A DNA stretch of 64,000 bases from Rhizobium sp. (GCF_036383055.1 NZ_DASVPC010000195.1); one strand, 5' to 3'. Numbered from the stretch's first letter, positions 39,036 to 62,351 are shown. Numbers and translations are program-made. Notes: a model not told the origin generated them from the sequence alone.

Positions 39036-39042
39036 CCTTGCC

Positions 39043-42101: not shown

Positions 42102-42142
42102 AAGAAAAAGGACCTTGTATTGTTCCCGGGTATTGTTCTGGG

Positions 42143-43795: not shown

Positions 43796-43863
43796 GTGTC
43801 TTTCCTGCTTCACGCTGCCGGCATTCGACAGGCCAACTCCACGCAACTCGACCGAGTGCGCCG

Positions 43864-44751
43864 TTAAAATATCTGTTCCCGGAGAATTCCCAGAAGATAC
43901 TGCCCATAGGAGTTCTTCTTCAGCGGCTCGGCGAGCGCCTCCACTTGGGAAGCATCGATCCAATGGCTCCGGTAGGCAATTTCCTCGGGGCAAGCGACTT
44001 TCAGCCCCTGCCGGCTTTCGATGGTGGCGATGTAATGGCTCGCCTCCAGCATCGATTCATGCGTGCCGGTGTCGAGCCAGGCATAGCCGCGGCCCATCGT
44101 CTGTACATCCAGCTGCCCGGCACTCAGGTAGTGCACATTGACGTCGGTAATTTCCAATTCGCCGCGGGGAGAAGGGCGGATCGACTTTGCGACGTCGACA
44201 ACATCGGCGTCGTAGAAATAGAGCCCGGTAACGGCGTAGTTGCTCTTCGGAACCTTCGGCTTTTCCTCAAGGCTGATCGCACGGCCCTGCTGATCGAATT
44301 CGACCACGCCATAGCGGTGCGGATCATGCACATGATAGGCAAAGACGGTGGCGCCAGCCTCCTTGTCGCTCGCCTGATGGAGCAGCTTGGCGAAATCGTG
44401 CCCGTAGAAGATATTGTCACCCAGCACCAGGGCGGACGGGGCGCCATCGAGGAATTCCTCGCCGATGAGAAACGCCTGGGCAAGGCCGTCTGGGCTAGGC
44501 TGGACCGCATACTCAAGCTTGATACCCCACTGGCTTCCGTCCTTCAGCAGCTGCTCGAAGCGCGGCGTATCCTGCGGTGTCGAAATAATGAGAATTTCGC
44601 GAATACCCGCCAACATCAAAGTCGTCAGCGGATAGTAAATCATCGGCTTGTCGTAGATCGGCAAAAGCTGCTTGCTGACCGCAAGGGTCGCCGGATAGAG
44701 GCGTGTGCCGGACCCGCCTGCGAGGATGATGCCTTTACGTGCTTTGGTCAT
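43864..44751 (-). CDS. rfbA: Glucose-1-phosphate thymidylyltransferase
   Basis: [37 protein letters not shown]. Confidence 0.95.
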
Positions 44752-44834
44752 TGTCTAGCGTCTCGTCTTGATTTCGTTTTACAGTCGCTTAACCCGTCAG
44801 TTGCAACCGATAAATTTGACAAACCTTGCGCATA

Positions 44835-45734
44835 TCAATGCGCGGCGGGTACAAGTCTCTCGATGACGCCATTTACGCCCTCCTGCCATGCGGGAAGAGG
44901 CAAGTCAAAGCAATCCATGAGCTTGGTGCAGTTCAGTCTCGAATTCTGCGGGCGCTTCGCCGGTGTCGGATAGTCGACGGTCGGGATCGGCTTGAGAGCC
45001 TCGAGCGTGAGTGCAAGCTTGACGTTCCTCGCCGAGACCTCGCGGACAATATGTGCCGCGTAGCCATGCCAGGACGTATTGCCTTGCGCGCTCAGATGAT
45101 AGGTGCCCGAGACATCCGGCGCTTCGGGACCGCTGACAAACTCGACGACCCTGCGCGTAACGTCGGCGATCAGCGCCGCCGATGTCGGCGCCCCGACCTG
45201 ATCAGCGACGATGTTCAGGGAGCTGCGCTCCTGCGCGAGACGCAGGATGGTCTTGAGGAAATTGTTGCCGTGATGGCCATAGACCCAACTTGTCCGCAGG
45301 ATGGCGTGACGAGCGCCGGAGGAGCGAACCGCCTCCTCGCCCAGCCACTTGCTTTCGCCATAGACCGACTGCGGGTTGACCGGATCGGTCTCGACATAGG
45401 CATCGGCCTTGGTGCCGTCGAAGACATAATCGGTCGAGTAATGTACGAGATAGGCGCCGTTGTCGGCAGCCCAGCGCGCCATCACGCCCGGTGCCGCCGC
45501 ATTCACCGCCATCGCCTGCTCTCTCTCGCTCTCCGCGCGATCGACAGCGGTATAGGCTGCGGGGTTCACAATGATGCTTGGCTTATGTGCCTCAAGCACC
45601 AAGAGAATGCTTGCCTCGCTCGCCAGATCCATCTCGGCGCGCGTAACTGCCGCGACTGTACCCCATGATGCGAGAGAACGCTGTAATTCGAAACCGACTT
45701 GCCCATTGGCGCCGGTGACCAGGATCGAGCTCAC
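44835..45734 (-). CDS. rfbD: dTDP-4-dehydrorhamnose reductase
   Basis: [11 protein letters not shown] ... YGESK. The GTG start overlaps the rfbB stop (GTGA). Confidence 0.9.
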
Positions 45735-46798
45735 GGCTGAACCTCATATTGCTTGCCCACCCATTCGCGATAGGCACCGCTGGTGACATTCTTCACCCAA
45801 TCCTCATTGGCGAGATACCACTCGATCGTCTTGCGAATGCCGGTCTCGAACGTTTCCTCCGGCTTCCAGCCCAATTCGCGCTCGAGCTTGCGCGCATCGA
45901 TCGCATAACGGCGATCATGGCCGGGTCTGTCCTTCACGAAGGCGATCTGGTCCTTGTAGCGGCTACCGCCAGCCTTCGGCCGCAACTCGTCGAGAATGGC
46001 GCAGATCGTATGCACCACATCCAGATTGGGCTTCTCATTCCAACCGCCGACATTATAGGTTTCGCCGACCATGCCCGCTTGAAGCACGCGGCGAATGGCG
46101 CTGCAGTGATCCTTGACATAGAGCCAATCGCGGATCTGCTGGCCGTCGCCATAGATCGGCAGGCTCTTGCCCGACAGCGCATTCAGGATCACCAGGGGGA
46201 TCAGCTTCTCGGGGAAATGATAAGGGCCATAATTATTGCTGCAGTTCGTAGTCACGACCGGCAAGCCATAGGTGTGATGCCAGGCGCGCACGAGATGGTC
46301 GGACGCCGCCTTGCTCGCGGAATAGGGGCTGTTCGGCTCATACCGGTTGAGCTCGTTGAACGGCGCGTCTTCCTTGGAAAGCGTGCCATAGACTTCATCG
46401 GTCGAAACATGCAGGAAGCGGAACGCCTGCTTCTCCTCGCCGGGCAGGCCGTCCCAGTAACTACGGACCGATTCCAGCAGGTTGAACGTCCCCACCACAT
46501 TCGTCTGAATGAAATCGCCAGGCCCGTGAATGGAGCGGTCGACATGGCTTTCGGCGGCGAAATTGAGGACGGCGCGGGGCTTGTGCATGGCCAGCAGATT
46601 GCCGGTCAGATCGCGATCGCCGATATCGCCATGAACGAAGACATGACGGTTATTGCCGTTCAGCCCCTTCAGCGTATCCAGATTGCCGGCATAAGTCAGC
46701 TTGTCGAGATTGATGACCGCCTCATCGAAGTGTTTCAACCAGTCGAGAACAAAATTCCCGCCGATGAAGCCGGCACCCCCGGAAACCAATATCGTCAT
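45731..46798 (-). CDS. rfbB: dTDP-glucose 4,6-dehydratase
   Basis: [17 protein letters not shown]...HVSTDEVYG...[16 protein letters not shown]. The track ORF extension to 46903 was removed. Confidence 0.95.
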
Positions 46799-46815
46799 TT
46801 CGCTTCTATTCCCAC

Positions 46816-47754
46816 CTAGACTTGTCTTAATACAACCGCGGCCACGAGGCCTATATTGCCGAGAAATGTTTGGCGATGAAGGCCAGACTTGTACAACGTC
46901 CACAAACGCTTTGGAAAGCCTTGCCTCCGGATTTGCTTAAATTGTTCCAGCGTCTTGATATTTTCGCCCGTCAGAAGGTGCTCTATCGATTTCAGCGCAT
47001 CAAGATTCTGGGTATTCCAGCTCCGGAACTGGCTCCTGGTCAACATGCGAAGCCGCCGGATGCGCGCGCGCCAGCCGGAATTGGAACCGACCAGATTGCT
47101 TCCATGCTGGCGATAATCGATCGGCGGCAGGGGGTCGTAGCGGATATGTCCGCCGGCGCCGGCGATGACCATATAGGCCCACCAATCGTGGCTGGCGACC
47201 GTGACGTCAGACCCCGCCGCCAACAGCACGCGCCGGGCGGTATCGTTCATGACGATGGTATTGCCGCCGCCAATGCTCTGTACCAGCGCGTTCGAAAATG
47301 ACGGCCGCCGTGCAAACAGCGGTGATTCACCGACCGATCCACCGCTTTCGTCGACAATATGCGTCCGCGAACAGTAAAGCGCGGGGACATCCGCAGGCTG
47401 ACTTTGCAGCCAGGCAAGCGCTCTCTCGAGCTTGTCGGTATGCCAGATGTCGTCCTGATCGGCAAAACTGTAAAAATCGGCAGAGATAGCCGGATTGCAG
47501 GCAAGAGCGAGGAAATTGCGGATAAAGCCTTTTCGCGGCCCCGCCACGACATGAATCGGCGCCCCGCGCTCCCTTTGGAAGTCCTCGACAATGCTCAAGG
47601 TGCGATCGGTGGAACCGTCGTCCGAAACCCAGAGCTCCCAGTCTCGATGCGTTTGAGCGAAAAACGATTCCATCTGTTCGGAGATAAATCGCTCTCCCTG
47701 AAATGTGCCCATGAGAATGGCAACGTGGCTGTTCATGCGCCCCACAACAGTCAT
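46816..47754 (-). CDS. Family 2 glycosyltransferase (first gene of the rfb operon)
   Basis: [42 protein letters not shown] and ..FADQDDIW... Confidence 0.85.
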
Positions 47755-48435: not shown

Positions 48436-50910
48436 CTACTTGGCACCTTGCGATACTGTACATAGTCCCACAATCTCGGTAGCCGCGAGTTTGTGATGTG
48501 AAAGCTGTTTGGCCGCCTCCGCTGGATCTTTGAATCCTCCGGACGTCGCAAGCGATATCGAATAGGCGCGCACCGCGTCCCTCAGCCTTTTCAGCCCCGC
48601 CGAGTTCACTATCCGAATGTCGCTATGGGGCGACGCCGCATGTTCGAAGACCGTCTTCGGATGCACCATGATTGGCGTCGCCGTGCATGACTTGTCGTAT
48701 TTTTCGCCGAACCATACGATCGAGCCGTTGAGCTGGTTGGCATCACCCTTCGATATCTTGTCTGCTTGGACCGCGCCACTCTTGCACTCGATAACAAGAT
48801 ATTTGAGGCCGCCCAGCGCCCAGAGATTGTCGGGGCCACGTCCTACCTCGTCTTCCGGACGCTGTGATCCGAACCCAAGGAATTTTCCGAGATCCTTCAT
48901 TGCAGCCTCGAAGCGCTTCGAACCTTCTTCTCCCCAGTCCAGATCGTCCAGAAGGCCGTTCACCCAGATGATTAGGTCGTTCCCCTCAAGGAACTTCCCC
49001 ATGTAGGCCACTGCGGCAGAGCTTTGGCCCGAGGGTGGCGCATTGAGTTTTGTGTAAGTCGCGCCTGCAATTGGCTTCAGAAGCCGAGAATTCAGACTCA
49101 GCGCAGACAATTGAAGTTCCTGGGCCTTAGCAGCATCGATGAAGTTCGTGATTTCAGCCAATTGCTGTTTAAGAAAGCCCTTTTCTTGGGGGTCAGTGGC
49201 GGAGTTAACAGCTTCTTGGGCCTTGTCGATCGCCAAATCATATCTGCTGATCCGGACCGCATCGAATGCTTCGCGCATCTTAACTTGATGACCATCGAGA
49301 TGGCCGCCTTCGATGGGAAGGGCATTCACCACAGCATTGCGTCCGGCCTGCACCCAGTCATCATTCTGCTCGAGGCAGAGATCCAATATTGGCTCAAGGT
49401 CTGCGAGCGACTTCCCGCGAACCTGCTCAGCAACTGCTTTTCCGAGCGTAATCTGCGCACGTGTAGCTGCAGAGAACATGTCTTCGGCTTCTGGCTGATG
49501 AAGTCGTTGTGTAAGCTTCCCACCTAATAGAAGCACGACGCAGTGATCATCACTCGATCGCACACCGCGGCCCATGCCCTGCTCGATCCTCTGGATTTGG
49601 CGGACAAGTTGCTTCCGGGTCCCGTCGAGCAACAGCATCTCCGATCGTTCCGAAAGACCGTAGACTTCCGGAAGTCCGTCAATGACCAGAAGTTCGCAAG
49701 CCTCGCCTGGCAAGTCGATGCCGTCATATTTGTTTATGAGTACAGACAGACCCACGTGACCGTTCTTAAGCTTCTCGACGCCTTGTTGGATGTTATCCTT
49801 GTCCAGGATTTGGTGTGCCACATCTTTCCAGAAGGATGCCCGGCTTTTTGAAGGAACGATGATGACCACGTTGAGGTCGTCCGCGATGCTAGACACCATC
49901 GCTTTGATTTCTTCGACTGTGTATTCAGGATTTATCTCTTGCGGAGCCAGAATCATCCGATCGCCGATATCGCCGCCGCCCTTCGGCCGGATAGGCTTCG
50001 CAATCTCTTTGGGATCGGCCTGGAAATGACTGACAAGGATTGTGTCATCAGCCAAAGTGGCGGTCATGTAGATTCGGCGCTGGGCAGAGGCGAAAGAGGG
50101 AATGCGATCGATCGGGAGAAACCGCGGAGCAATCTCGAGCCGACCTCCTCCGAAAATGCATGTGCATAGCGGAATCGCTTCGCTCAACAACGGCCAATTC
50201 CATTCGAGCTCCTTACCGTTCCTATTAGCGTGCAGGATTCCCAGAACATCGTCCTGATGTGCCTGCCACGCCCAGTAGGGAACCGTAAGGACGGCATTCG
50301 GATCTTCCGCCTTCACGTCAAGAAGGGTTGTCGGTGATTGCGCCTTAAGATCCTCTTCGAATAGCGCAAGGAGACCGTCATACACCGGGCTTCCGGCTTT
50401 GGACTTCAAGCAGAACTGGTCGTTTACGCTGCTGAGACTTGCATGGGCATCGTCTATCACGACTACTCCGATTGGGATCTTTCTTTCTCCGACGCCAAAG
50501 ACTGTCCGTCCATTGATCAGCTTGTGGATGTTAGCAACCAGAATCGATCTGCCCGCGAGAAAGTCCGGATCTTTTTCGTCGTCCGTTGCCGCAATTCCAA
50601 GATCGCTCGCCTCTGCGATAACCTGCGAGACCAGGAAGTTATCTGGGGTGATATATACCGCCGGCTTCACATTTTCATTGAGCGAGCTCTGTAGGGACAG
50701 CAGACCGACAACGGTCTTTCCCCCACCGGTGTTCATCTTTATCGTCAGATCCTTCGCCGCTCGTCTTTCAAACCAGGCGTCAAGAACATCGGCTTGCTCG
50801 TCCAATGGGCGCTTGAACCGAGCATGCCGTTTCAGGGTTGTGAAGATTTTCCTTGGGTCGATCTGCTTCGCTGTCGTGCCAGCGTTTAATATGCCGAAAT
50901 CTAATGACAT
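48436..50910 (-). CDS. SF2 (DinG/Rad3-like) helicase fused to a C-terminal PD-(D/E)xK-type nuclease; candidate single-gene defence protein (Hna-like architecture)
   Basis: Motif I MNTGGGKT, motif II VVVIDDAHA and a motif VI-like QGMGRGVRSSDDHCVVLLLG. The C-terminal approx. 170 aa carry GPDNLW...YLVIECKSG (D...ExK). Confidence 0.8.
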   Translation of the reverse strand: MSLDFGILNAGTTAKQIDPRKIFTTLKRHARFKRPLDEQADVLDAWFERRAAKDLTIKMNTGGGKTVVGLLSLQSSLNENVKPAVYITPDNFLVSQVIAEASDLGIAATDDEKDPDFLAGRSILVANIHKLINGRTVFGVGERKIPIGVVVIDDAHASLSSVNDQFCLKSKAGSPVYDGLLALFEEDLKAQSPTTLLDVKAEDPNAVLTVPYWAWQAHQDDVLGILHANRNGKELEWNWPLLSEAIPLCTCIFGGGRLEIAPRFLPIDRIPSFASAQRRIYMTATLADDTILVSHFQADPKEIAKPIRPKGGGDIGDRMILAPQEINPEYTVEEIKAMVSSIADDLNVVIIVPSKSRASFWKDVAHQILDKDNIQQGVEKLKNGHVGLSVLINKYDGIDLPGEACELLVIDGLPEVYGLSERSEMLLLDGTRKQLVRQIQRIEQGMGRGVRSSDDHCVVLLLGGKLTQRLHQPEAEDMFSAATRAQITLGKAVAEQVRGKSLADLEPILDLCLEQNDDWVQAGRNAVVNALPIEGGHLDGHQVKMREAFDAVRISRYDLAIDKAQEAVNSATDPQEKGFLKQQLAEITNFIDAAKAQELQLSALSLNSRLLKPIAGATYTKLNAPPSGQSSAAVAYMGKFLEGNDLIIWVNGLLDDLDWGEEGSKRFEAAMKDLGKFLGFGSQRPEDEVGRGPDNLWALGGLKYLVIECKSGAVQADKISKGDANQLNGSIVWFGEKYDKSCTATPIMVHPKTVFEHAASPHSDIRIVNSAGLKRLRDAVRAYSISLATSGGFKDPAEAAKQLSHHKLAATEIVGLCTVSQGAK

Positions 50911-51404: not shown

Positions 51405-51575
51405 ATGGATTTTGATTTCTGGAACTTCCTTGGCGGCTTGCTCACAGGCGCTGCCGGGGGCGCGCTACTGACGCTGCACTTCACCAAGACTATGCGAGCC
51501 GATCGCCATGGAAATACAACCGACCAATCCGGAGCGCGGGCTCGCGGAGACATCGTAGGCCGCGACAAGCGTTAA
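51405..51575 (+). CDS. 56-aa glycine-zipper transmembrane peptide with a C-terminal GN..Q..ARA.G.IVGRD motif
   Basis: MDFDFWNFLGGLLTGAAGGALLTLHF (one TM helix, G-x3-G repeats) followed by a polar tail. GGGGGGAA lies 5 nt upstream of the ATG. The track's TTG at 51390 was trimmed. Confidence 0.55.
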   Translation: MDFDFWNFLGGLLTGAAGGALLTLHFTKTMRADRHGNTTDQSGARARGDIVGRDKR

Positions 51576-51601
51576 CTTTCTGGAAGCACGCCATCATATC
51601 C

Positions 51602-52183
51602 ATGAACATTGCGACCCATCAGGGTAACGTCTCCAACCAGCAAAATGCACGCGCCGGCGGCCCCATCGTAGGCCGCGACTACTATAATGTCGAAGCCAAG
51701 AGGGGCTTGGTCGAGAAGCTGCTGCATAAGCTGAAAGAACAGTATGACTGCAACGAGCAGACGCAGACGACGATAGACGAACTCGCCCGATACCACACGC
51801 GGCGCGCGCCCGACGGCATTGACGGTCTTGAAGCCAAGTTCGAGGTCAGTGGGCGGTCCGCCTACTACGACGATGCGATCGAGAAAAAGGAGATGTTCGC
51901 GAAACTTCTTGAGAGATGGTCGCTGTACTCATCCGCCCAGGAAATCTTCGTCCACATCCTGGCCAAGGCCGAGAATGAGTTCACCCAGGTAATCTACGGC
52001 CAAATACCGAAGAAGGAACCCGAGGAAATCAACGCTATGGTCATCGACCGTATAGTAAATCCTATCGTTGAAGAATGCGGTGGCGATCTCATAGCCGTGA
52101 ACCACAACCTAGTTCAAGGAATGGTGTACTGGCTTGCTGAGCAATGCTTCATCAAATGGCATCACGGCTTGGTTGCGAGATGA
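51602..52183 (+). CDS. 193-aa helical protein: N-terminal copy of the IVGRD motif plus a C-terminal domain in the position of an ABC-3C/Lamassu effector-adaptor (LmuA slot)
   Basis: Residues 8-26 (GNVSNQQNARAGGPIVGRD) match the tail of the upstream peptide. The rest is helical and I see no enzymatic motif. Its stop codon overlaps the next gene's start (ATGA at 52180). Confidence 0.7.
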   Translation: MNIATHQGNVSNQQNARAGGPIVGRDYYNVEAKRGLVEKLLHKLKEQYDCNEQTQTTIDELARYHTRRAPDGIDGLEAKFEVSGRSAYYDDAIEKKEMFAKLLERWSLYSSAQEIFVHILAKAENEFTQVIYGQIPKKEPEEINAMVIDRIVNPIVEECGGDLIAVNHNLVQGMVYWLAEQCFIKWHHGLVAR

Positions 52184-52701
52184 CTCAGCTCACATATAAC
52201 GAGGCCTTCGACCCATATCATGCCGCCTTCCGGTTTCTTAGACTACATCTGGCGTGCGACGTAACCGCCAGAGTGCCCTTCGACACGATACGTATACTTG
52301 ATTTCTACCTGCTCTTCCCGTTCCGCCTTCAATCGATGAAGCTCTTCTCGCAAGACACGAGTTGGAGAAAGGTAAGCAAATCATATGAGGAACAAGCGCC
52401 GTATGGCGCGATGCCGGATGACAACATTGTCTTCTCTCGCATGGAACCCTTCCAGCGGGCTGCCGCTTCCAGTCTTGTGATCAGCGGTTACCTTGCGCCG
52501 AAGGCGTGGGATCAGAACGAAGTGCAGTTCACCAAGGAAGCGATCCCGGATGCGCTCAGACTTCGCTGTTCTGAACTGAACGCCCGGATGAGCGATGTGG
52601 TGGAAATCCTTTGTCAGATCAAGGCTCGGTATCCGCTCGGAGGCCGTGACGGGCTGAAGGATCGCACAGGTCTTCTGGAGTATCGATATGACCCGGTATG
52701 A
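52180..52701 (+). CDS. 173-aa protein in the 'middle component' position of an ABC three-component (LmuC-like) system
   Basis: MTQLTYNEAFDPYHAAFRFLRL...IRILDFYLLFPFRL. It is translationally coupled on both sides and small, with no enzymatic motif. The assignment rests on position and size only. Confidence 0.65.
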   Translation: MTQLTYNEAFDPYHAAFRFLRLHLACDVTARVPFDTIRILDFYLLFPFRLQSMKLFSQDTSWRKVSKSYEEQAPYGAMPDDNIVFSRMEPFQRAAASSLVISGYLAPKAWDQNEVQFTKEAIPDALRLRCSELNARMSDVVEILCQIKARYPLGGRDGLKDRTGLLEYRYDPV

Positions 52702-54619
52702 CCCCTCCCTCGTGGTCAAGCGCCTTGTCGTGAAGCGCGGCGCCTTCACGATGTATGATGAGGCCTTTCACACGGGCGTTAACGTGGTCAGAGGCGACAA
52801 CTCCTCTGGCAAGTCGACGATTATGAACTTCCTTTTCTTCGGTCTGGGAGGTGATCTCGACCGTTCGGCGTGGAGCGAACACGCCCTGCTGTGCGATCAT
52901 GTGTGGCTTGAGGTGGAGTTCAACGGCAACCCCGCGGTGCTGCGGCGGGAGATCGATGTCTCGTCCCAATCGGCGATGGAGATCTTCGGCGGACGCTATG
53001 AGCAAGCAGTCGTGGCCCCAATCGAAGCGTGGCACCGATATCCCTATGCCCGTTCAAGAAACCAGGAGAGCTTCTCACAAGCGATCTTCCGGCTCCTGGA
53101 GATGCCAGACGTTGCAGTTGAGGGCACGTCGAGCATCACCATCCACCAGATCCTGCGCCTTCTCTACGCAGATCAGCTTTCGCCGACAGAAAGCCTCTTC
53201 CGGTTTGAAGGGTTCGATTCTGAGAACCTGCGCGAGGCCGTGGGCAATCTCCTTTGCGGAGCGTTCGACACCGAGATATATGAGCTCCAGCAACTGAAGC
53301 GAACGAAGGAAAAGGAATTCACCGAAGCCAGCGCGGAGTTGAGGAGCATATTCAAGGTCGTCGGAGGTGGCGACGAGAGCATGACCCTTGACTGGATCGA
53401 GCAGCGCCGCAAAGGCCTTGTTCAGGAGCGCGACACGACCTCGGCTCAGCTTCTGGAGGCAGAAGAGGCGTTCTATTCCAGCCAATCCTCCGAAAAGATA
53501 ACGCTTCAGGTTCAGAAAGACCTCTACAAGCAGGTTCAGAAACTGCAGGGTGAGATCCGTCACAAGCAGGCCGAGGTGGATTCAGTTGAATTCGAAATCG
53601 CGGATTCGGCGGCGTTCATCCGAACCTTGTCCACACGACTGGAAGCATTGCGAGATGCGGATCTCACCGCGAGTGTCGTAGGCAGCGTCCGGTTCGGAAC
53701 CTGCCCGGCTTGCTACGCGGAGGTCGTTGAGCACGACCATGATGTCGAAGCTTGTCATCTATGCAAGACACCCCTCGACACCGGGCGTGCCCGTGAGCGA
53801 GTAGTCGGCATTATCAACGAGCTGTCGATACAGATAAAGCAGTCGGAGCGCCTGCAAACAATTAGGGCCGAGCGCCTGGAGAAGCATCAGGACTCCCTGA
53901 ATGCGCTGGTCGCGAACTGGCGGCTCAAGTCAAAGGAACTTTCCGATCTTAGCTCAGTACCGACATCCAAAGCTCGGGAGCAGATCCGAGAGTTGCAGCG
54001 GAAGCTTGGGTATATTGACAAATCCATTGAAGATGTCGAGGCGCAGGTCAAGCTCGCGAACAAGATCGGCCACCTATCCGCCCGCAAGGCGGAGCTCGAT
54101 CAGGAGATCCAATCGCTGGGTTCCCGCATTACCACGCTCCAACTCAGTCAGACCGATCGGTTGCGGACAGCCAAGAACAGCATTGAGAAAAACATCATCG
54201 AGATCCTCCAGGGCGATCTCAAGCGTCAGGACTCCTTCGAAAACCCCGAGCATGTTCAATTCTCGTTCGCGAAGAACTCCATCACGGTTGATGAGCACAC
54301 CTACTTCTCCGCAAGCTCCCGCGTTATTCTCAAGGCCGCATTCCTGGTGGGCTTCCTGAAGGCCGCCCTCTATGATCGACAATTCCGCCATCCCCGCTTT
54401 CTCATGATCGACATCACCGAGGACAAGGGTATCGAGCAGGCGCGAAGCCATAATTTCCAGAAGCAGGTAATCGAGATTTCGGACCAGGCGCCTGTCGAGC
54501 ACCAGATCATCATCGCGACGGCAATGCCGTGGCCCGAGATTGGGCCGCAGCTCTTTGTCGGCAGACATTCGACGCGACAGCAAGGCACACTCGCGTTTCT
54601 CACGAGCAACGGCAACTGA
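52688..54619 (+). CDS. SMC/Rad50-like ABC ATPase with a long coiled-coil insert (LmuB / ABC-3C ATPase-like)
   Basis: Walker A GDNSSGKST (52793-52819). A coiled-coil region of about 300 aa carries CPAC-x13-CHLC at its centre. The C-terminal lobe has a degenerate signature motif (FSASSR) and Walker B RFLMIDITED (54395-54424). Confidence 0.85.
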   Translation: MTRYDPSLVVKRLVVKRGAFTMYDEAFHTGVNVVRGDNSSGKSTIMNFLFFGLGGDLDRSAWSEHALLCDHVWLEVEFNGNPAVLRREIDVSSQSAMEIFGGRYEQAVVAPIEAWHRYPYARSRNQESFSQAIFRLLEMPDVAVEGTSSITIHQILRLLYADQLSPTESLFRFEGFDSENLREAVGNLLCGAFDTEIYELQQLKRTKEKEFTEASAELRSIFKVVGGGDESMTLDWIEQRRKGLVQERDTTSAQLLEAEEAFYSSQSSEKITLQVQKDLYKQVQKLQGEIRHKQAEVDSVEFEIADSAAFIRTLSTRLEALRDADLTASVVGSVRFGTCPACYAEVVEHDHDVEACHLCKTPLDTGRARERVVGIINELSIQIKQSERLQTIRAERLEKHQDSLNALVANWRLKSKELSDLSSVPTSKAREQIRELQRKLGYIDKSIEDVEAQVKLANKIGHLSARKAELDQEIQSLGSRITTLQLSQTDRLRTAKNSIEKNIIEILQGDLKRQDSFENPEHVQFSFAKNSITVDEHTYFSASSRVILKAAFLVGFLKAALYDRQFRHPRFLMIDITEDKGIEQARSHNFQKQVIEISDQAPVEHQIIIATAMPWPEIGPQLFVGRHSTRQQGTLAFLTSNGN

Positions 54620-54635
54620 GGGAAAGGATACATCG

Positions 54636-54926
54636 ATGGCGAAGGCGCAATCAGTTGAAATCGCGGGCCATCAGTTTCCTCGCAAGACGGATGCGTTGGC
54701 GTTCATGAAAGTCATGCTCAACCGCTATCGGCCTGGGGACACCGTGACCGATGACGACAGAGAGTTCCTTCAGGAGGCCTTGAAACGCCATCCAGAGGCG
54801 GCCACCAAGATCAGATCTGGTGTAAGAGGTTTCGAGGTAAGGGCCGCCGACTACGGTACCCAATGCTTCTGGATACTCCGGATAGACGGTTCCGACGAAC
54901 GGTTCTCCTACAAGAGCTGCATCTGA
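54636..54926 (+). CDS. DUF3223 (DCL-domain) protein
   Basis: MAKAQSVEIAGHQF...LKRHPEAATKIRSGVRGFEVRAADYGTQCFWILRIDGSDERFSYKSCI matches the DUF3223 C-terminal pattern (HP..K...G...F.V......CF...R.DG....FSY..C). RBS GAGGGAAAGGA. It starts 16 nt after the ATPase stop. Confidence 0.75.
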   Translation: MAKAQSVEIAGHQFPRKTDALAFMKVMLNRYRPGDTVTDDDREFLQEALKRHPEAATKIRSGVRGFEVRAADYGTQCFWILRIDGSDERFSYKSCI

Positions 54927-54963
54927 TCGACTGGATGGTCACCGCCTGGGCAGCGGCTAGGAG

Positions 54964-55602
54964 ATGTTCGTGAACCAGAGTATACTCAACGGCCCTGCCC
55001 GTCCGGAGTTGATCGCTCCGGGAAAAACGAAAGATGACTGGCATGACTTCGCTAAGAAGCTGGTGCCCGGCGGCGATGAAGTTCTGTGGGCGGAAGCTTT
55101 CGAGAGCTTCCTGTCCGCCCGACTTCATAGCCGATACATCGATCCCATCGCAGCGGTACGAGACGGCTCCAAGTGGAAGGGGGAGGGCTTCACGATCGTA
55201 TCGATACAATGCGCGCTCATAGAATTCCTTGCGGCGCTCCGGGCGGGCAAGAATTTTCGCCATGAAAATCCTGTGCCGCCGCATGAATATAAGAATAGCA
55301 GCGGTCTCTTTTGCGACTTTCTGCGAAAGACTGATCCATTCGACAAGTTGTTCACGAAGCCGCAAGCCAAGGATTTCTACGCAAACGTCCGGTGCGGACT
55401 CCTGCACGAGGCAAGGACAAAGGGCGACTGGATCATATGGGCGAGCGGCACCCCAGCCGTGGATTGTCAGAGGAAGATCGTCTATCGCGACAGCTTTCAG
55501 GACCTCATCGAGGGGTACATCCAAGACTACGGTCGCGCGCTGCTGGAGGACATCCCCCTACAAAATGCCTTCGTCAGGAAGTTCAACGATCTGGCCGATT
55601 GA
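54964..55602 (+). CDS. 212-aa all-helical hypothetical protein with an R-x4-H motif (possible HEPN-like RNase)
   Basis: ...DFYANVRCGLLHEARTKGDW... (R-CGLL-H). No other family recognised. It starts 37 nt after the DUF3223 gene; AGGAG lies upstream, and the start is ATG 54964 or GTG 54970. Confidence 0.6.
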   Translation: MFVNQSILNGPARPELIAPGKTKDDWHDFAKKLVPGGDEVLWAEAFESFLSARLHSRYIDPIAAVRDGSKWKGEGFTIVSIQCALIEFLAALRAGKNFRHENPVPPHEYKNSSGLFCDFLRKTDPFDKLFTKPQAKDFYANVRCGLLHEARTKGDWIIWASGTPAVDCQRKIVYRDSFQDLIEGYIQDYGRALLEDIPLQNAFVRKFNDLAD

Positions 55603-55949: not shown

Positions 55950-58900
55950 TTGTCGGCAAATTTCGGTCATCTGCAGGAGGTCAGCCCAGAGCTCCATCGC
56001 CTCGGCACGCTGGCCGAGCGCTTCTTTGCCGAAGACGCAAATACATCGCTGATCAAGAGCCGCCAGTTCGGCGAGTACATGGTCAAGGAGATCGCGGCAC
56101 TTTCCGGCGTCTATGATCCCGCGGCGCGTGAGACCACGAATGATCTCCTCAGGCGGCTGGTGACACAGCAGGTCTTGCCGCGTGAAGTCGCCGACATCTT
56201 CCATGCCGTGCGCAAGAGTGGCAATGAGGCCGCTCATAACCTGGCGGGATCGCCCGAAGAAGCTTTGGCCGCGCTCAAGTTCTGCCGCGCGCTAGGAGTC
56301 TGGTATCGGCGCACTTACGGCCGCGATCCCAATTTCAGGCCAGGCCCGTTTGTACCCCCAAAGGCCTCTGCCGATATTGACCAGGCCACACGGGCAGAGC
56401 TCACGGCCCTGCGCGCCCAGGTTCTTGAAGCCCAGGATAAACTGGCCGCCGCCCATGCCTCGGCTGAGGAACTCGCCAAGGCCCGAGCTGCTGCCGAAGA
56501 GCTTGCCCGGCAGGCGGCAGCCGATAGCCAAGTGTGGGAACAGACTGCTGTCGAAATGGAGGCAAATCAGGCCGCGCTTTCGCGCAAGCTCGCGGAACTG
56601 CAGAAGGTGGCCGAAGCCCAGCCTGAGCAATTGCGGATGGAGTTCAAACAGGCCGGTATTCAGGCGGCGAGTCGGTTGGAACTCGACGAGCGCCAGACCC
56701 GCCGTCTGATCGACGTCCAGCTTGTCGATGCCGGCTGGGAGGCCGACAGTGACCGCCTGACCTACCAGAAGGGTGCTAGACCGGAAGAAGGCCGCAGCGT
56801 GGCCATCGCAGAATGGCCCTCCGAAGGTGGTCGGGCGGACTACGCACTTTTCGTCGGCCTCACCTGTCTCGGCGTCATCGAGGCGAAGCGCGAGAGCGTC
56901 GATGTGCCATCGATCCTGCAGCAAGCCGAACGCTACGCCCGCACGATTGTCTTGGCGCCGGAACAGACGTATCCGCATGGTCCATGGAAACATGGCTTGG
57001 ATGACCCCTTCCGCGTGCCCTTTGTCTTCGCCACGAACGGCCGACCCTATGTGCGCCAGTGGCTGACGAAATCCGGAATCTGGTACCGCGACGTGCGGCG
57101 GGAGACGAACCACGCCATTGCCATGACGAGCTGGTTCTCGCCGAAGGACCTGCTGGACAAGCTGGCCACGGATGTCGACACCGCCGCGCAAGGCCTCGCC
57201 GAAGAAAGCTTCGGCAAGGGCAAGATGCGCCCCTACCAGGAGGAGGCAATAGCGGCGCTCGAAGATGCCGTGGTGGCCGGCCAGCGCGACATCCTTATTT
57301 CCATGGCGACCGGCACCGGCAAGACGCGCACGGCGATTGCGCTCATGTATCGTCTCCTGAAGCACAAGCGCTTCCGCCGCATTCTCTTCCTGGTCGACCG
57401 CAAGGCGCTGGGACGGCAGACGAGCGATGCCTTGGAAACCACCGAAATCGAAGGCATGCTGAACTTCGCCCAGATCTACAAGGTGGCGGGGTTGGAGCAG
57501 AAGCTGCCGGAGGACGAGGATCAGGTGCAGGTCGCGACCGTTCAGTCGCTGATCGCCCGCATCCTGAACGAGCCTGACCCGGCCAAACGCCCGACGCCAG
57601 GTACCTTCGATTGCATCATCGTTGACGAAGCCCATCGCGGTTACACGCTCGATGCCGAGCTGCGTGAAAGCGACATCGGCTTCCGCAACATCGATGACTA
57701 CCAGTCTGCTTACCGCCAGATCCTCGATTACTTCGATGCCGTGAAGGTGGCGCTGACGGCGACACCCGCGCTGCATACCCGCGAGATCTTCGGCCATCCC
57801 GTCTTCCACTATGGCTACCGCCAAGCCGTCGTCGAGGGCTATCTCAACGATCACCTACCGCCAAAGCGTATCACGACGGCTCTGTCTGAAGCTGGCATTC
57901 ATTTCGTTGGCGGCGAGGAGGTCGAGATCATCGACCGCAAGACCGGACAGATCGATCTCTTCGAGCTTCCGGACGAAGTATCGCTCGATTACGATCTCGC
58001 CGACTTCAACAAGAGGGTTTATTCGGAAGCCTTCAACCGTATCGTCTGCCGAGCGATCGCCACCGAGATCTCGCCGTCGAAGCCCGGCAAGACGCTGATC
58101 TTCGCCGCCCGCGACGCCCATGCCGATGATATCGTGCGCCTGCTGATCGAGGAGCTGCAGGAGGAATACGGGAAAGAGGTTGTGCCGCATGGCATGGTCG
58201 TGAAGATCACCGGCAATGTCGAAAAGGCCGACGACCTGATCCTGAAATTCAAGAACGATCCCTATCCGAAATACGTCGTCACCGTGGATCTGCTGACCAC
58301 CGGCGTCGACATCCCCTCGATCTGCAATCTCGTCTTCGTGCGCCGGGTCAAGAGCCGTATCCTCTACGACCAGATGATCGGCCGCGCCACGCGGCTTTGC
58401 CCTGACATCGGCAAGGAGCATTTCCGCATCTTTGATGCGGTCGATCTCTATGCCGAGCTGCAGGAGATGACAGACATGCACCCGGTCATCGTCAAGCCGG
58501 ATATCTCTCTCGGTCAGCTCGTCACTGATCTGCGGACGGCAGAAACGGAAGAGGACAAGAGCTGGGTCGCTGGCCAGGTGATCGTGCGCATGCGGGCCAT
58601 GGTTAAGCGCATGGATGCCGAGAGCCGGGAAAGCTTCGAACGCCACACGGGCGAAAGTCCGGACATGGCCCTTCAGCGGCTTTCAACCCACTCCGGTACC
58701 GAGCTACAGAACTGGCTCGCCGCCTATCCACGCGCGGTCGAGCTGCTGGAGCGCCGCCCGCTGCGCGGTGACAAGAATGATGGCGTCGTCATCTCCACCC
58801 ATGAGGATGAGCTGCTGCGCATCGAAGAAATCTTTGGCAAGAACACGACGCCGGAGGATTACATCACCAGCTTCGAACGCTTCGTGCGCGAGAACATGAA

Positions 58901-59357
58901 CCAGGTGCCGGCTCTGATCGCTGTCACCCAGCGCCCGCGCGATCTGACCCGCAAGGAGATTTCGGAGCTGGCCGGCCTGCTCGACGAGAAGAATTATTCC
59001 GAAGCTATGCTGCGCGCCGCCTACGGCCGCGCCCGCAATGCCGATATCGCCGCCCATATCATCGGCTTCGTCCGACAGGCGGCTCTTGGTGATCCGCTGA
59101 TCCCCTATGCCACCCGCGTCGACAATGCGATTCTGAAGATCGAGGCCTCGCGGCCGTGGACGCAAAAGCAGAAGGAGTGGCTGCGCCGCATAGGCCGGGC
59201 GCTGAAGGACAAGCCGGTAGCCGACCCGACCCTGCTCGATCAGGGCGCCTTTGCTGACAAGGGCGGCTTCAAGCGCATCTCGCAGGAGTTTGATGGCGCG
59301 CTCGACGAGGTCCTGCACGCCTTTAACGAGGCAATCTGGACGCCACCCGCCGCCTGA
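55950..59357 (+). CDS. hsdR: Type I restriction enzyme R subunit with N-terminal DUF4145-like domain and coiled coil
   Basis: N-terminal ...FHAVRKSGNEAAHNL (DUF4145-type R..GN.AAH). An Ala/Glu-rich coiled coil follows. Nuclease motif ADYALF...VIEAKRE, helicase motifs MATGTGKTRTA and IIVDEAHRG, and a long C-terminal helical domain. The apparent start is a TTG. Confidence 0.9.
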   Translation: MSANFGHLQEVSPELHRLGTLAERFFAEDANTSLIKSRQFGEYMVKEIAALSGVYDPAARETTNDLLRRLVTQQVLPREVADIFHAVRKSGNEAAHNLAGSPEEALAALKFCRALGVWYRRTYGRDPNFRPGPFVPPKASADIDQATRAELTALRAQVLEAQDKLAAAHASAEELAKARAAAEELARQAAADSQVWEQTAVEMEANQAALSRKLAELQKVAEAQPEQLRMEFKQAGIQAASRLELDERQTRRLIDVQLVDAGWEADSDRLTYQKGARPEEGRSVAIAEWPSEGGRADYALFVGLTCLGVIEAKRESVDVPSILQQAERYARTIVLAPEQTYPHGPWKHGLDDPFRVPFVFATNGRPYVRQWLTKSGIWYRDVRRETNHAIAMTSWFSPKDLLDKLATDVDTAAQGLAEESFGKGKMRPYQEEAIAALEDAVVAGQRDILISMATGTGKTRTAIALMYRLLKHKRFRRILFLVDRKALGRQTSDALETTEIEGMLNFAQIYKVAGLEQKLPEDEDQVQVATVQSLIARILNEPDPAKRPTPGTFDCIIVDEAHRGYTLDAELRESDIGFRNIDDYQSAYRQILDYFDAVKVALTATPALHTREIFGHPVFHYGYRQAVVEGYLNDHLPPKRITTALSEAGIHFVGGEEVEIIDRKTGQIDLFELPDEVSLDYDLADFNKRVYSEAFNRIVCRAIATEISPSKPGKTLIFAARDAHADDIVRLLIEELQEEYGKEVVPHGMVVKITGNVEKADDLILKFKNDPYPKYVVTVDLLTTGVDIPSICNLVFVRRVKSRILYDQMIGRATRLCPDIGKEHFRIFDAVDLYAELQEMTDMHPVIVKPDISLGQLVTDLRTAETEEDKSWVAGQVIVRMRAMVKRMDAESRESFERHTGESPDMALQRLSTHSGTELQNWLAAYPRAVELLERRPLRGDKNDGVVISTHEDELLRIEEIFGKNTTPEDYITSFERFVRENMNQVPALIAVTQRPRDLTRKEISELAGLLDEKNYSEAMLRAAYGRARNADIAAHIIGFVRQAALGDPLIPYATRVDNAILKIEASRPWTQKQKEWLRRIGRALKDKPVADPTLLDQGAFADKGGFKRISQEFDGALDEVLHAFNEAIWTPPAA

Positions 59358-59436
59358 CGTTTCAGGCTGTCGTTGACCATCGGCCACCGCTCGCTACAAC
59401 CGCAATCACGATCCCGGATCAGATGAGAATCATGCC

Positions 59437-60978
59437 ATGAATGCCAATGCCATCGTCCAGAAACTCTGGCGCCTCTGCACGGTCCTGCGCAAGGACGGCA
59501 TCACCTACCAGCAATATGTCACCGAGCTGACCTATCTGCTTTTCCTGAAGATGATGGCCGAGCGCAACCGCGAGACCGGCAGTCTGCCCATGCCCAAGGG
59601 CATGCGCTGGGCGGATCTGGTCGCAGCCAACGGCCTGGCCAAGCTGGAGCATTATCGCAAGGTCCTGGTCACCCTTGGCGCCGCCAGCACCCGTCTCGGC
59701 AAGGACGACGCACTTGTGCTTCCGCCCGGCGAAAACGCCAGCCCGGAAGACCGGAAGCGCTATGCCGATGCCCGTCCGCTGCCGGAGATGGTGCAAAAGA
59801 TCTTCGACAATGCCTCGACCTTCCTGCGCGAGCCGCAGAACCTCACGACGCTGGTCACCGCCATCGACGAGCTCGACTGGTTCTCCGAAGAGCGCGACCA
59901 GTTCGGCGATCTCTATGAAGGTCTGCTGCAGAAGAACGCGGAAGAAACCAAGCGCGGCGCCGGGCAATACTTCACTCCCCGCGTGCTCATCGAGCTTCTG
60001 GTCCGCCTCATGCAGCCGAAGCCCGGCGAAGTCATCCAGGATCCGGCGGCCGGCACGGGCGGCTTCCTGATCGCTGCCGATCGCTACATGAAGGCGCGCA
60101 CCGACGACTATCTGGATCTCGGCGAGAAGGAACAAGAGTTCCAGAAGCGCCGCGCCATCCACGGCATGGAGAACGTGCCCGGCACGCTCCGCCTGCTGCT
60201 GATGAACCTTTATCTGCACGATATCGACGGCGATCATGTCGATCTTGGCGATACGCTCTCCGACAAGGGCAAGACCCTCGGCCGCGCCAACCTCATCCTC
60301 ACCAATCCGCCCTTCGGCCCGGCAGGTGGCGCGCCGACCCGCGACGACCTCTCGTTCACGGCCAGCGTCTCCTCCTACCAGCTTCCCTTTGTCGAACATT
60401 GCATTCGCGCGCTGCAGGCCGGTGGCCGCGCGGCCATCGTTGTGCCAGACAATGTGTTGTTCGAAGACGGGCGCGGCAAGGACTTGCGGCGGATGATGAT
60501 GGACTGGTGCGACCTGCACACCATCCTGCGCCTGCCGACTGGCATCTTTTATGCGCAAGGCGTCAAGACCAATGTCATCTTCCTGACACGCGGCAAGACC
60601 GAGACCGGCAACACCAAAGCCACCTGGATCTACGATCTGCGCGCCCAGATGCCGAAATTCGGCAAGACCACACCGCTGACTCAAGAGCATTTCGAAGGCT
60701 TTGAAAAGGCTTTTGGCTGGGACCCCTTCGGTAAGGAGCGCGGGCCGGATGAAGGCGAGGCCGGCCGCTGGCGGGAGTTCATGCGCGAGGGCATCGCCGC
60801 CCGCGGCGACAATCTCGATATCGTCTGGTTGCGCGAGACAGAGGAAGAGGCGGAAGAAGGCCTCATTGAACCCGACGACATCGCGGCCGCCATTCTCGGC
60901 CACCTGCAGGCTGCGACGCTGGAGATCGAGGCGCTGATGGCGGATCTGGGTGACGAGCTGCCAGAGGCGGCGGAATGA
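59437..60978 (+). CDS. hsdM: Type I restriction-modification system methyltransferase subunit (N6-adenine)
   Basis: HsdM N-terminal helical domain, SAM motif DPAAGTGGFL and catalytic LTNPPFG. Confidence 0.95.
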   Translation: MNANAIVQKLWRLCTVLRKDGITYQQYVTELTYLLFLKMMAERNRETGSLPMPKGMRWADLVAANGLAKLEHYRKVLVTLGAASTRLGKDDALVLPPGENASPEDRKRYADARPLPEMVQKIFDNASTFLREPQNLTTLVTAIDELDWFSEERDQFGDLYEGLLQKNAEETKRGAGQYFTPRVLIELLVRLMQPKPGEVIQDPAAGTGGFLIAADRYMKARTDDYLDLGEKEQEFQKRRAIHGMENVPGTLRLLLMNLYLHDIDGDHVDLGDTLSDKGKTLGRANLILTNPPFGPAGGAPTRDDLSFTASVSSYQLPFVEHCIRALQAGGRAAIVVPDNVLFEDGRGKDLRRMMMDWCDLHTILRLPTGIFYAQGVKTNVIFLTRGKTETGNTKATWIYDLRAQMPKFGKTTPLTQEHFEGFEKAFGWDPFGKERGPDEGEAGRWREFMREGIAARGDNLDIVWLRETEEEAEEGLIEPDDIAAAILGHLQAATLEIEALMADLGDELPEAAE

Positions 60979-62351
60979 GTGAGTTGCCGAGAGGGTGGGG
61001 AGAAGACGAAGCCTGGAATATCTGCGAGTTGGTGCAGAGTGGCGGTACACCAAAAGAGGGCTTCATTGACAAACCCGGAGTGCCGTTTTTGAAGGTGTAC
61101 AACATCGTTGATCAGAAGATTGACTTTGAGTACCGGCCCCAGTTCATCGACGTTGACATTCATCGCTCCTCAATGGCGAAGTCGCAGGCATATCCTGGCG
61201 ATGTTTTGATGAACATCGTAGGACCGCCACTTGGCAAGGTAGCTGTAATTCCAGACTCCTTCCCAACGTGGAACGTCAATCAAGCGTTGACGATTTTTCG
61301 GCCGAGTGAAGCCGTGACCTCCGAGTGGCTTTACTATTTCCTTTGCGGTGGCAACAGCGTGAAGAGTGTGATCAATGAGACGCGCGGTTCTGCGGGCCAA
61401 GTCAACATTTCGTTGTCGCAGTGCCGAGCCTTCAAGCTTCCGCTCCCACCCCTGGCCGAGCAAAAGCGCATCGTGGCTAAGCTGGATGCGCTGAACGCGA
61501 AATCCGCCCGCGCCCGCACCGAACTCGCCCGCATCGAAACCCTCGTCTCCCGCTACAAGCAGGCTGTGCTCAGCAAGGCGTTCAGCGGGGATCTGACGCG
61601 GGAGTGGCGGAAAGTTGCATCGACAGTTTGGCCGTGGCGCTCGGAGTTTTGGGGTGATTGTGGCGAGACCTTAAACGGGCGCGCATTCCCGAGCGGCGAC
61701 TACTGCGAGTCCGGGGTGAGGCTCTTGAGGCCCGGTAACCTTGGTGCATCAGGCGATGTTTTCTGGAATGAGAAGAACTCGCGGTTTCTACCTGACAAGT
61801 ACGCGGTCGAATTCCCAAAGCACTTCATCAAGGGCGAGGAGATACTTATTAATCTCACTGCTCAGAGCCTTGAGGACCAATTTTTGGCACGAGCTTGTCT
61901 TTCATCTGCGTCGGACGAGTTCATGTTGAACCAGCGAATTGGCTTATTTCGCCCTCGAAACATGATCCCCAAGTTCTGCCTATTCGCTCTCAAGAGTCCC
62001 CGCTTCCGGGGTTTTGTGGACAACGGAATGAACTCAGGCAGCCTGATTCAGCACGTTCATACAAAGCAGCTTGAACAGTACGAATTTGAAGTTCCAGATA
62101 TTGAAGAACAACACGAAATCGTCCGCCGTATCGAATCCGCCTTCGCCAAAATTGACCGGTTGGCTAAAGAGGCAGAGCGCGCGCTGGAGCTGGTGGGCCG
62201 GCTGGACGAAGCGATCCTGGCCAAAGCCTTCCGCGGCGAACTGGTTCGCCAGGATGAAAATGTCGAACCCGCCGAACACCTGCTTGCCCGCATCCGCGCC
62301 GAGCGCGAGACAGCACCGAAAACGAAGCGCGGGCGAAGAGCCCGCGCCTGA
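60975..62351 (+). CDS. hsdS: Type I restriction-modification system specificity subunit
   Basis: Two target-recognition domains separated by conserved helices (LPPLAEQKRIVAKLDAL ; EEQHEIVRRIESAFAKIDRL). The ATG overlaps the hsdM stop (ATGA). Confidence 0.9.
   Translation: MSELPRGWGEDEAWNICELVQSGGTPKEGFIDKPGVPFLKVYNIVDQKIDFEYRPQFIDVDIHRSSMAKSQAYPGDVLMNIVGPPLGKVAVIPDSFPTWNVNQALTIFRPSEAVTSEWLYYFLCGGNSVKSVINETRGSAGQVNISLSQCRAFKLPLPPLAEQKRIVAKLDALNAKSARARTELARIETLVSRYKQAVLSKAFSGDLTREWRKVASTVWPWRSEFWGDCGETLNGRAFPSGDYCESGVRLLRPGNLGASGDVFWNEKNSRFLPDKYAVEFPKHFIKGEEILINLTAQSLEDQFLARACLSSASDEFMLNQRIGLFRPRNMIPKFCLFALKSPRFRGFVDNGMNSGSLIQHVHTKQLEQYEFEVPDIEEQHEIVRRIESAFAKIDRLAKEAERALELVGRLDEAILAKAFRGELVRQDENVEPAEHLLARIRAERETAPKTKRGRRARA

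Follow-up and report, generated by a model that had tools for sequence, protein, structure and literature searches.

The DNA considered here is a stretch of 64,000 nucleotides (nt) from Rhizobium sp. (GCF_036383055.1, NZ_DASVPC010000195.1), referred to throughout as the window. At positions 51405–55602 it carries six genes in a row: a 56-amino acid (aa) membrane peptide, a 193-aa adaptor, a 173-aa 'middle' protein, an ATPase of the SMC/Rad50 kind, a DUF3223 protein, and a helical protein. An initial annotation took these for a single operon and a new defense system related to the ABC-three-component (ABC-3C) and Lamassu systems. When homologous loci are compared, the locus takes on a somewhat different shape. 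We lean, modestly, toward the view that its first four genes constitute an abortive-infection system of the Lamassu family (ABC-3C, CTD9/MC5 subtype) whose effector is split off as a separate, peptide-based membrane component.

Genes of the locus and their conservation

All six open reading frames (ORFs) are present on the + strand where the initial annotation placed them, and its account of the junctions holds exactly when the sequence is re-read (Table 1): in order, there is a gap of 26 nt, then two overlaps (ATGA at 52180, and 14 nt at 52688), then two further gaps, of 16 nt and of 37 nt. An independent gene caller, applied to an identical metagenomic contig, finds the same six genes, the 56-aa peptide among them, and begins the last at GTG 54970. 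That start has an AGGAG 6 nt upstream and gives a protein of 210 aa and a gap of 43 nt; the closest homologue is likewise 210 aa long. The 212-aa ORF first described is real, then, but its translation more likely starts at GTG 54970 than at 54964. Upstream of the peptide gene, and likewise of the DUF3223 gene, there are Shine–Dalgarno-like sequences; a scan for consensus promoters and terminators gave nothing above background, and the window contains no tRNA. Judged from the sequence, co-transcription of the six genes is plausible.

The place of the locus among ABC-3C systems, which for the two smaller proteins had been proposed from position and size, can now be argued from homology. The adaptor matches Pfam CTD9 (PF20285, 'C-terminal domain 9 of ABC-3C systems') with E=1.2e-33, over residues 75–186 and 113/113 model positions. 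It has 398 close homologues of ~190 aa, and there are 568 clusters at 50% identity, nearly all of 185–200 aa; NCBI names homologues 'ABC-three component system protein'. The 74 residues in front of CTD9 contain no enzymatic or toxic domain that Pfam, NCBIfam, PADLOC or PHROG profiles recognize, which bears out the earlier remark that this protein has no effector domain. The next protein is Pfam MC5 (PF20291, 'ABC-3C middle component 5') over its whole length (E=4.5e-56, residues 4–171, 167/167 model positions), so that 'middle' protein was the right name for it.

The ATPase aligns with the PADLOC LmuB model PDLC03862 over residues 5–609 of its 643, on model positions 4–608 (E=9e-46), and also matches phrog_1637 (E=1e-98). 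The Walker A, Walker B and hook cysteines that the initial annotation picked out are genuine, and conserved in 50 homologues. Among these homologues, D575 of Walker B is followed by a non-conserved residue, and a conserved E578-D579 comes three residues later. For comparison, characterized LmuB has Gln in place of the catalytic Glu of Walker B (10.1101/2025.03.14.643221). With CTD9, MC5 and a full-length LmuB each recognized by homology, the locus almost certainly belongs to the ABC-3C systems.

The ATPase might, alternatively, be a housekeeping repair protein of the SMC, RecN or SbcC type whose small neighbors are incidental, an outcome that the initial annotation named beforehand as fatal to its proposal. 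Weak Rad50, SMC and ASRP profile matches point that way, but the protein falls far under the cut-off for every housekeeping SMC/Rad50/RecN-type NCBIfam model while matching LmuB models at full length, and its gene is always flanked by those for CTD9 and MC5. Nor does the distribution suit a housekeeping gene: it is patchy, homologous systems lie on integrative and conjugative element (ICE), plasmid and prophage-type contigs, and some copies are disrupted by insertion sequence (IS) elements. Profile scores and synteny with CTD9 and MC5 effectively refute this explanation, which we regard as vanishingly improbable.

To see which genes travel together, 58 loci were retrieved from species-representative genomes via an alignment of CTD9 homologues; four IMG/VR viral contigs were surveyed as well. 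The 58 loci represent Alphaproteobacteria and Gammaproteobacteria, with Pseudomonas, Lysobacter and Dokdonella among them. The genes for CTD9, MC5 and the ATPase, traced by tblastn with the window proteins, have the same order and spacing in every one of the 58 that extends far enough, MC5 always lying between the other two. Three of the 58 could not be evaluated for the peptide, two being ended by contig edges and one a remnant; of the other 55, 53 have an intact peptide ORF, among them loci where tblastn had missed it and the upstream frames were read instead. This small ORF ends 5–30 nt before the CTD9 gene, and the Rhodospirillum rubrum locus has it too. One of the two exceptions, from a metagenome-assembled genome, has an in-frame stop in the peptide (locus L047, about 9760–9960); the other (L066) has no peptide, and its adaptor, a divergent one, has no motif of the kind described below. 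The same four genes are found on all four viral contigs, and PHROGs has families for the three larger proteins. Since only the peptide, CTD9, MC5 and ATPase genes are kept together, the conserved unit, 51405–54619, is one of four genes, not the six originally drawn.

Some copies of the locus show decay. Besides the stop in L047, an IS element splits the CTD9 gene of L046 (8724–10372), and in Sinorhizobium medicae (L077, 1–4584) an IS66 stands where genes 1 to 3 would be, so that what remains is a truncated ATPase followed by DUF3223 and the 212-aa gene.

Tools in current use probably overlook systems of this subtype. The PADLOC models for LmuA and LmuC match neither the CTD9 nor the MC5 protein, so detectors probably flag an orphan LmuB only. 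Gene callers, in turn, missed the peptide in two of the three gene calls inspected for such loci, both of them calls of the R. rubrum locus. Because PADLOC recognizes only LmuB, CTD9/MC5 systems are probably under-counted.

Table 1. Genes, domains and motifs of the locus, with positions in the window
Feature	Position	Strand	Description
Gene 1, membrane peptide, 56 aa	51405..51575	+	Proposed membrane effector: hydrophobic glycine-zipper helix, basic linker, C-terminal shared motif
Gly-rich hydrophobic helix of peptide, residues 5-26, FWNFLGGLLTGAAGGALLTLHF	51417..51482	+	GxxxGxxxG zipper; from peptide alignment and hydropathy
Shared motif copy 1, peptide residues 40-56, DQSGARARGDIVGRDKR	51522..51572	+	Family consensus DQSxAxAGGDIVGRDK
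Gene 2, ABC-3C 'effector-slot' adaptor, 193 aa	51602..52183	+	Disordered N-terminal motif, helical linker, CTD9 (predicted)
Shared motif copy 2, adaptor residues 12-28, NQQNARAGGPIVGRDYY	51635..51685	+	Family consensus NQxxAxAGGDIxGRDK
CTD9 domain of LmuA-equivalent protein	51824..52159	+	Pfam match; docking/oligomerization role presumed
Gene 3, middle component (LmuC-equivalent), MC5, 173 aa	52180..52701	+	Pfam PF20291
Gene 4, SMC/Rad50-like ABC ATPase (LmuB-equivalent), 643 aa	52688..54619	+	Coiled coil and zinc hook; PADLOC LmuB
Walker A GDNSSGKST, ATPase residues 36-44	52793..52819	+	RGxNSSGKST at least 90% conserved, 50 homologues
Zinc-hook-like CxxC...CxxC, coiled-coil apex, C339/C342/C356/C359	53702..53764	+	CPaC...aChLCKtP conserved in 50 homologues
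ABC signature-like FSASSR, ATPase residues 540-545	54305..54322	+	YFSASSR at least 90% conserved
Variant Walker B RFLMIDITED	54395..54424	+	D575 without following Glu; conserved E578-D579 later
Gene 5, DUF3223/DeCL, 96 aa	54636..54926	+	Facultative accessory; Pfam, PADLOC HamC2
Gene 6, helical protein, 212 aa (probably 210 aa, start 54970)	54964..55602	+	Independent neighbor, not a system component

The peptide and the shared motif

What joins the peptide to the rest of the unit is a motif of ~17 residues, [DN]QxxAxAxGDIVGRDK, that is present both in the tail of the peptide and at the N-terminus of the adaptor. In DNA the two copies form a 33-nt direct repeat of 79% identity. The motif had been noticed in the window, and it is real: it is conserved across Alpha- and Gammaproteobacteria and prophage-type contigs, and the match between peptide and adaptor goes far beyond chance, given its recurrence in 53 of the 55 evaluable loci. 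Within ~1.2 Mb of surveyed loci the strict motif is confined to the peptide and adaptor genes. The adaptor's copy is kept even in remote members of its family, and the family profile match starts at this motif.

In some members the motif unit is tandemly repeated, as GGDMINGDKIGGDKVGGNKV, GRDKTVGRDQR and VGGDQVAGDKVDGPKIAGDVLGDN (L063 at 9615–9902, the peptide tails of L039 and L040, and protein P0259), an arrangement reminiscent of the stacking of beta-solenoid repeats.

The two copies share derived states as well as a consensus. Peptide and adaptor both have AGNK in L023 and both have GGDK in L038 and L055; RDNAGGNI in the peptide of L058 is paired with RDNAAGNI in the adaptor, and SNVGRDQIGG in that of L060 with SNVGQNQIGG; L061 has NM (peptide) and DM (adaptor) where others have DQ. 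Arg14 is the clearest position: it is lost from the peptide in 8 of the 12 loci whose adaptor has lost Arg14, while the peptides of the other 40 loci all keep it (Fisher p=6.6e-7, or p=2.9e-6 after one sister pair is merged). Overall motif identity gives a permutation p<5e-5, a value inflated by relatedness. Gene conversion, or concerted evolution, was considered as the source of the matching and rejected: where the two copies have the same residue, their codons agree no more often within loci (0.381) than between them (0.385), so the matching is not due to conversion.

The peptide itself matches no named family. Pfam, NCBIfam, PADLOC and PHROG give no match—in Pfam, PADLOC and NCBIfam none even at E<=1—and public records call it merely 'hypothetical protein'. 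Two long database proteins that cluster with it proved to be unrelated artefacts. It is under strong purifying selection, with a median ratio of nonsynonymous to synonymous substitution rates (dN/dS) of ~0.07, and G15 and G19, spaced as GxxxG, are invariant in its alignment. Acidic residues come before its helix and basic residues after it, a distribution that by the positive-inside rule would place the motif-bearing tail in the cytoplasm.

On the adaptor's side, the AlphaFold2 (AF2) model of the adaptor has residues 1–33, and hence the motif, at a predicted local distance difference test (pLDDT) score <50, which predicts disorder; the rest is helical, at low confidence. Longer CTD9 homologues of 226–258 aa were looked at as possible fusions of peptide and adaptor. 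They keep the motif, but their N-terminal extensions are non-hydrophobic and contain no transmembrane (TM) helix, and the idea was dropped. We think it very probable that the peptide is a functional partner, coupled through the motif.

Downstream genes and the defense island

Gene 5 encodes, as first proposed, a DUF3223 protein (Pfam E=3.7e-23); its best PADLOC model is HamC2 (E=8e-39). It is ~80% identical, counted over aligned residues, to PDB 2K0M. The R. rubrum operon, too, has a DUF3223 gene after that for the ATPase, and 2K0M matches it over 96 aligned residues. An orphan structural-genomics structure, solved by NMR and deposited as an 'uncharacterized protein', is thereby tied to the DUF3223 accessory of this type of operon. 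In a locus of the R. rubrum type (L069, 6625–10333), the operon lies between type IV secretion system genes (VirB/Trb, TraG) in an ICE-like element, and its peptide ORF is uncalled.

Gene 6 encodes a protein that AF2 models as all-helical, with a pLDDT of 91.7. Its family has 221 matches, all 'hypothetical' and all from Alphaproteobacteria, and in 32 homologues the sequence R143-C-G-L-L-H148 (R-x4-H) is invariant. No match to it is found in Pfam, NCBIfam, PADLOC or PHROGs—for Pfam, to none of the 32 members—nor in the PDB by sequence or profile, and neither PDB nor BFVD yields a Foldseek match with E below 0.08. The nearest in BFVD is a marginal match to an uncharacterized Arthrobacter phage protein (E=0.085, TM score 0.39). 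From the model and the alignment, the protein may represent a fold family not yet described, in which the motif RCGLLHEA is invariant. HEPN, the identity first suggested for it, is unsupported: R-x4-H is the one HEPN-like trait present, profiles and folds give no match, and hhalign against the neighboring DUF4145 HEPN returns a probability of 0.1%.

Do these two genes belong to the system? On the six-gene model they would be integral killing modules, DUF3223 and a HEPN-like R-x4-H protein working beside the peptide. The window itself invites this reading: its six ORFs are co-oriented, with short gaps; three close relatives (L014, L018 and L022) have all six genes arranged in the same way; R143 and H148 are invariant in the last family; and DUF3223 is a recognized accessory, the HamC of Hachiman type II, found in 3.8% of Hachiman systems (PMC8565338). 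The wider survey tells against it. Among the ~50 loci with a readable downstream region, DUF3223 follows the ATPase in 14–16 (~30%), and is thus absent from ~70%, as it is from all four viral loci; the 212-aa gene follows the system in four, all close relatives, and is absent from >90%. As a plant DeCL domain, moreover, DUF3223 has been reported as binding RNA and a protein partner, not as a toxin (10.64898/2026.01.19.700320). Its patchy presence suggests a modulator rather than a core part, and we take it to be an optional accessory.

The 212-aa family, for its part, also occurs by itself or in other islands, where there are no ABC-3C genes at all: in Celeribacter it lies between phoX and dctP, in Mycoplana within a QueC/AbiJ island, and elsewhere next to a GGACT gene or a YobI-type ATPase. 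Because it follows the system in so few loci and occurs elsewhere without it, this gene is an independent resident of the same defense island, not a component. The six-gene model as a whole we consider very unlikely.

The YobI-type neighborhood deserves a word. In Ochrobactrum sp. (L075, 2293–6630), a 66%-identical homologue of the 212-aa protein lies 43 nt downstream of the 1221-aa YobI-type ATPase, in an island that also has an HNH protein, a reverse transcriptase with PRTase, and GmrSD. The 212-aa family may be a recurrent 3' neighbor of different defense NTPases.

In the window, the locus lies in a defense island, with a PDC-S28 helicase on one side of it and a Type I restriction–modification (R-M) system on the other. 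This setting, together with the carriage of homologues on an ICE, a plasmid and prophage-type contigs, is contextual support for a role in defense. The helicase, an 824-aa DEAD/DinG-like protein, is encoded on the – strand at 48436–50910, divergently from the system, and matches PADLOC PDC-S28, a candidate single-gene system, from end to end (E=0, 1065 bits); toward its C-terminus is a stretch, 'LVIECKSG', which resembles a PD-(D/E)xK nuclease motif. The R-M system follows directly downstream on the + strand, at 55950–62351. It consists of HsdM, HsdS and a 1135-aa HsdR that begins with DUF4145 and has an EcoEI_R_C tail. Downstream of hsdS, at 62673–63383 on the + strand, is a 236-aa ORF with no Pfam match, and a longer identical contig (L001) has more uncharacterized ORFs and an HNH_2 gene beyond it. 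On its other side the island abuts a lower-GC block at 34487–47754 (~0.53–0.57, vs 0.60–0.64 further upstream) occupied by a dTDP-rhamnose/polysaccharide cluster: RmlA-, RmlB- and RmlD-like enzymes, WsaF-like rhamnosyltransferases, family 1 and 2 glycosyltransferases, and methyltransferases.

Proposed mechanism and relation to known systems

In the solved Lamassu complexes, an LmuB dimer and LmuC hold one LmuA molecule through its CTD; when DNA ends are sensed LmuA is released, its CTD tetramerizes, and its N-terminal effector becomes active, a scheme that the authors suggest would fit any effector activated by oligomerization (10.1101/2025.03.14.643221; 10.1101/2025.06.23.660979). Carried over to the present locus, the ATPase dimer and MC5 would sequester one CTD9 protein, and would let it go when foreign DNA ends or replication intermediates are sensed. 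The adaptor would have, where the usual N-terminal enzyme would be, only its disordered ~17-residue motif. Once free, the protein would oligomerize through CTD9—presumed, from its counterparts, to be a docking and oligomerization domain—and so bring its N-terminal motifs together in a cluster. Clustered motifs might then recruit, or template, the tails of the peptides, and the weakly hydrophobic peptide helices would gather into an oligomeric assembly that permeabilizes the membrane, whereupon the infected cell dies. DUF3223, where present, would be an optional accessory here, much as HamC is in Hachiman type II. We infer the architecture of the complex, the trigger, the killing at the membrane, and the templating mode of coupling by analogy. 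As for the peptide taken by itself, we think on balance that it is the killing effector.

The main rival makes the peptide a membrane tether or regulator, not a killer, with protection coming from DNA binding or exclusion by the SMC-like complex, or from a host factor. The motif might dock the sensor at the inner membrane, where DNA enters, or its two copies might compete for one site on MC5 or the ATPase. That the peptide is as strictly conserved as the core and has the motif in common with the adaptor shows coupling, not toxicity; its helix is only moderately hydrophobic; and profile searches demonstrate no effector activity in any of the four proteins. These points favor it. A conserved GxxxGxxxG zipper, however, is expected of helices that associate with one another more than of a passive anchor, and competition for a site would leave the matched derived states of the motif unexplained, unless the third site co-evolves. 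Characterized Lamassu systems, furthermore, all use an effector on the CTD protein and act by abortive infection (10.1101/2022.05.11.491447; 10.1101/2025.03.14.643221), and a system with no effector would be unprecedented. We consider a tether or regulator improbable.

Several observations weigh against that preferred reading, or against particular parts of it. The maximum Kyte–Doolittle mean of the peptide over 19 residues is 1.43, vs the usual transmembrane threshold of 1.6. The AF2 model of the adaptor has a pLDDT of 55.6, a low confidence that makes Foldseek searches with it meaningless, and sequence searches of the PDB, solved Lamassu structures included, find no relatives of CTD9 or MC5. 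When sister pairs of loci are contrasted, the motif copies of the same locus match better than those of crossed loci in nine cases, worse in five, and equally in nine (sign p=0.21, Wilcoxon p=0.03); this contrast is weak, and so the case for co-variation rests on few positions and lineages. The motif, at ~17 aa and with its D, R, D and K, is shorter and more charged than BASS motifs, which are ~25 aa long and depleted in K (10.1101/2020.01.06.895854). Simple beta-strand pairing between the two motifs, or docking of both on a third site, would fit the same data as a strict amyloid.

Coupling that is truly amyloid-like is for these reasons a tentative suggestion, which we would not bet on. The fullest form of the proposal—an SMC-like sensor acting on a 56-residue glycine-zipper pore peptide by prion-like templating, with a new class of bacterial amyloid-signaling motif, in a widespread proteobacterial Lamassu subtype—is possible, but we do not think it probable either.

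How much of this is new? 'Undescribed system', the phrase in the initial annotation, was overstated, for CTD9 and MC5 are already entries of the ABC-3C classification in Pfam, and NCBI already names their homologues accordingly. The conserved peptide and its coupling through the motif are what we have not found described. The full-text literature gave no link between Lamassu and amyloids, or between Lamassu or LmuA and a transmembrane peptide, with the limit that the original ABC-3C paper (Krishnan et al. 2020), which may comment on this subtype, was not covered.

Lamassu systems are among the commonest of defense families, present in ~10% of genomes, and their mechanism of sequestration, release and oligomerization has been demonstrated mainly for nuclease effectors. 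If our reading is right, the same switch drives a non-enzymatic effector from a separate, tiny gene, and DNA sensing by SMC-type proteins is linked to amyloid or prion-like signaling, so far tied to NLR-type receptors. In the fullest form of the proposal, with prion-like templating, it would be the first amyloid-signaling module outside NLR and TPR sensors, and the first Lamassu effector to be both non-enzymatic and split.

Among known systems, Hachiman type II (HamA-HamB-HamC) too has a small DUF3223 protein, as a minority accessory of a DNA-sensing defense, but HamA (DUF1837) is not matched here, and DUF3223 follows an ABC-3C ATPase. The nearby helicase, PDC-S28, which matches HamB with E=0.049, has the opposite orientation, and none of the 58 related loci has it. 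The small TM effectors of CBASS, Pycsar and retrons resemble the system in the outcome proposed: loss of membrane integrity is their suicide step also. What activates them, however, is a nucleotide second messenger or another ligand, and not a motif in common with the sensor side.

With Lamassu type II and other ABC-3C systems the likeness is extensive. The order is the same—CTD protein, middle component, SMC/Rad50-like ATPase—and the ORFs overlap; the ATPase matches LmuB at full length, with a hook in its coiled coil and a Walker B that looks non-canonical; both the CTD and the MC family come from the same published classification; and release and oligomerization of the CTD protein are presumably the same here. 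There are differences too. No domain of the nuclease, Sir2, protease or hydrolase kind is present on the CTD protein, whereas the effector catalogue of Millman et al. consists of nucleases, Sir2, hydrolase, protease and monooxygenase (10.1101/2022.05.11.491447). There is a fourth conserved gene, for a membrane peptide with a motif common to the CTD protein. And in sequence, no similarity can be detected between CTD9 or MC5 and the LmuA and LmuC that have been solved; the Lamassu subtypes so far characterized use CTD7/MC3 and CTD12 (10.1101/2025.06.23.660979). On these grounds CTD9/MC5 is a subtype distinct from those characterized structurally.

The nearest parallels for the peptide lie elsewhere, among pairs that signal through amyloids. 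In Bell/NLR pairs of filamentous bacteria and HET-S/NWD2 of fungi, amyloid signaling is recognized by a motif that a small protein has at its C-terminus and the adjacent sensor at its N-terminus (10.1101/2020.01.06.895854), and in Bab/Agp, which acts in abortive infection in E. coli, such signaling has been shown experimentally (10.1101/2024.11.07.622273). Against these pairs—Bab/Agp (BASS11), Bell/NLR (BASS) and HET-S/NWD2—several differences stand out. The sensor here is an SMC-like ABC complex, with CTD9 as partner, and not an NLR/STAND or TPR protein; the putative executioner is only 56 aa long and has no helical domain of the Bell, HeLo or Bab type, nor any Pfam match; the motif is shorter and more charged; and the hosts are unicellular Proteobacteria, in which Bell domains and NLRs are rare (BASS survey, 10.1101/2020.01.06.895854). 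The likeness is nonetheless of some substance. A small protein begins with a hydrophobic helix and ends with the motif, and next to it is a motif-bearing gene on the sensor side; the motif is rich in G, Q, N, V and I, lies in disordered regions, and is sometimes repeated; and a sensor side activated by oligomerization, in a setting of defense or cell death, is a trait of those pairs that is presumed here. The locus thus resembles the amyloid pairs in layout while being a member of neither the Bell/NLR nor the Bab/Agp families.

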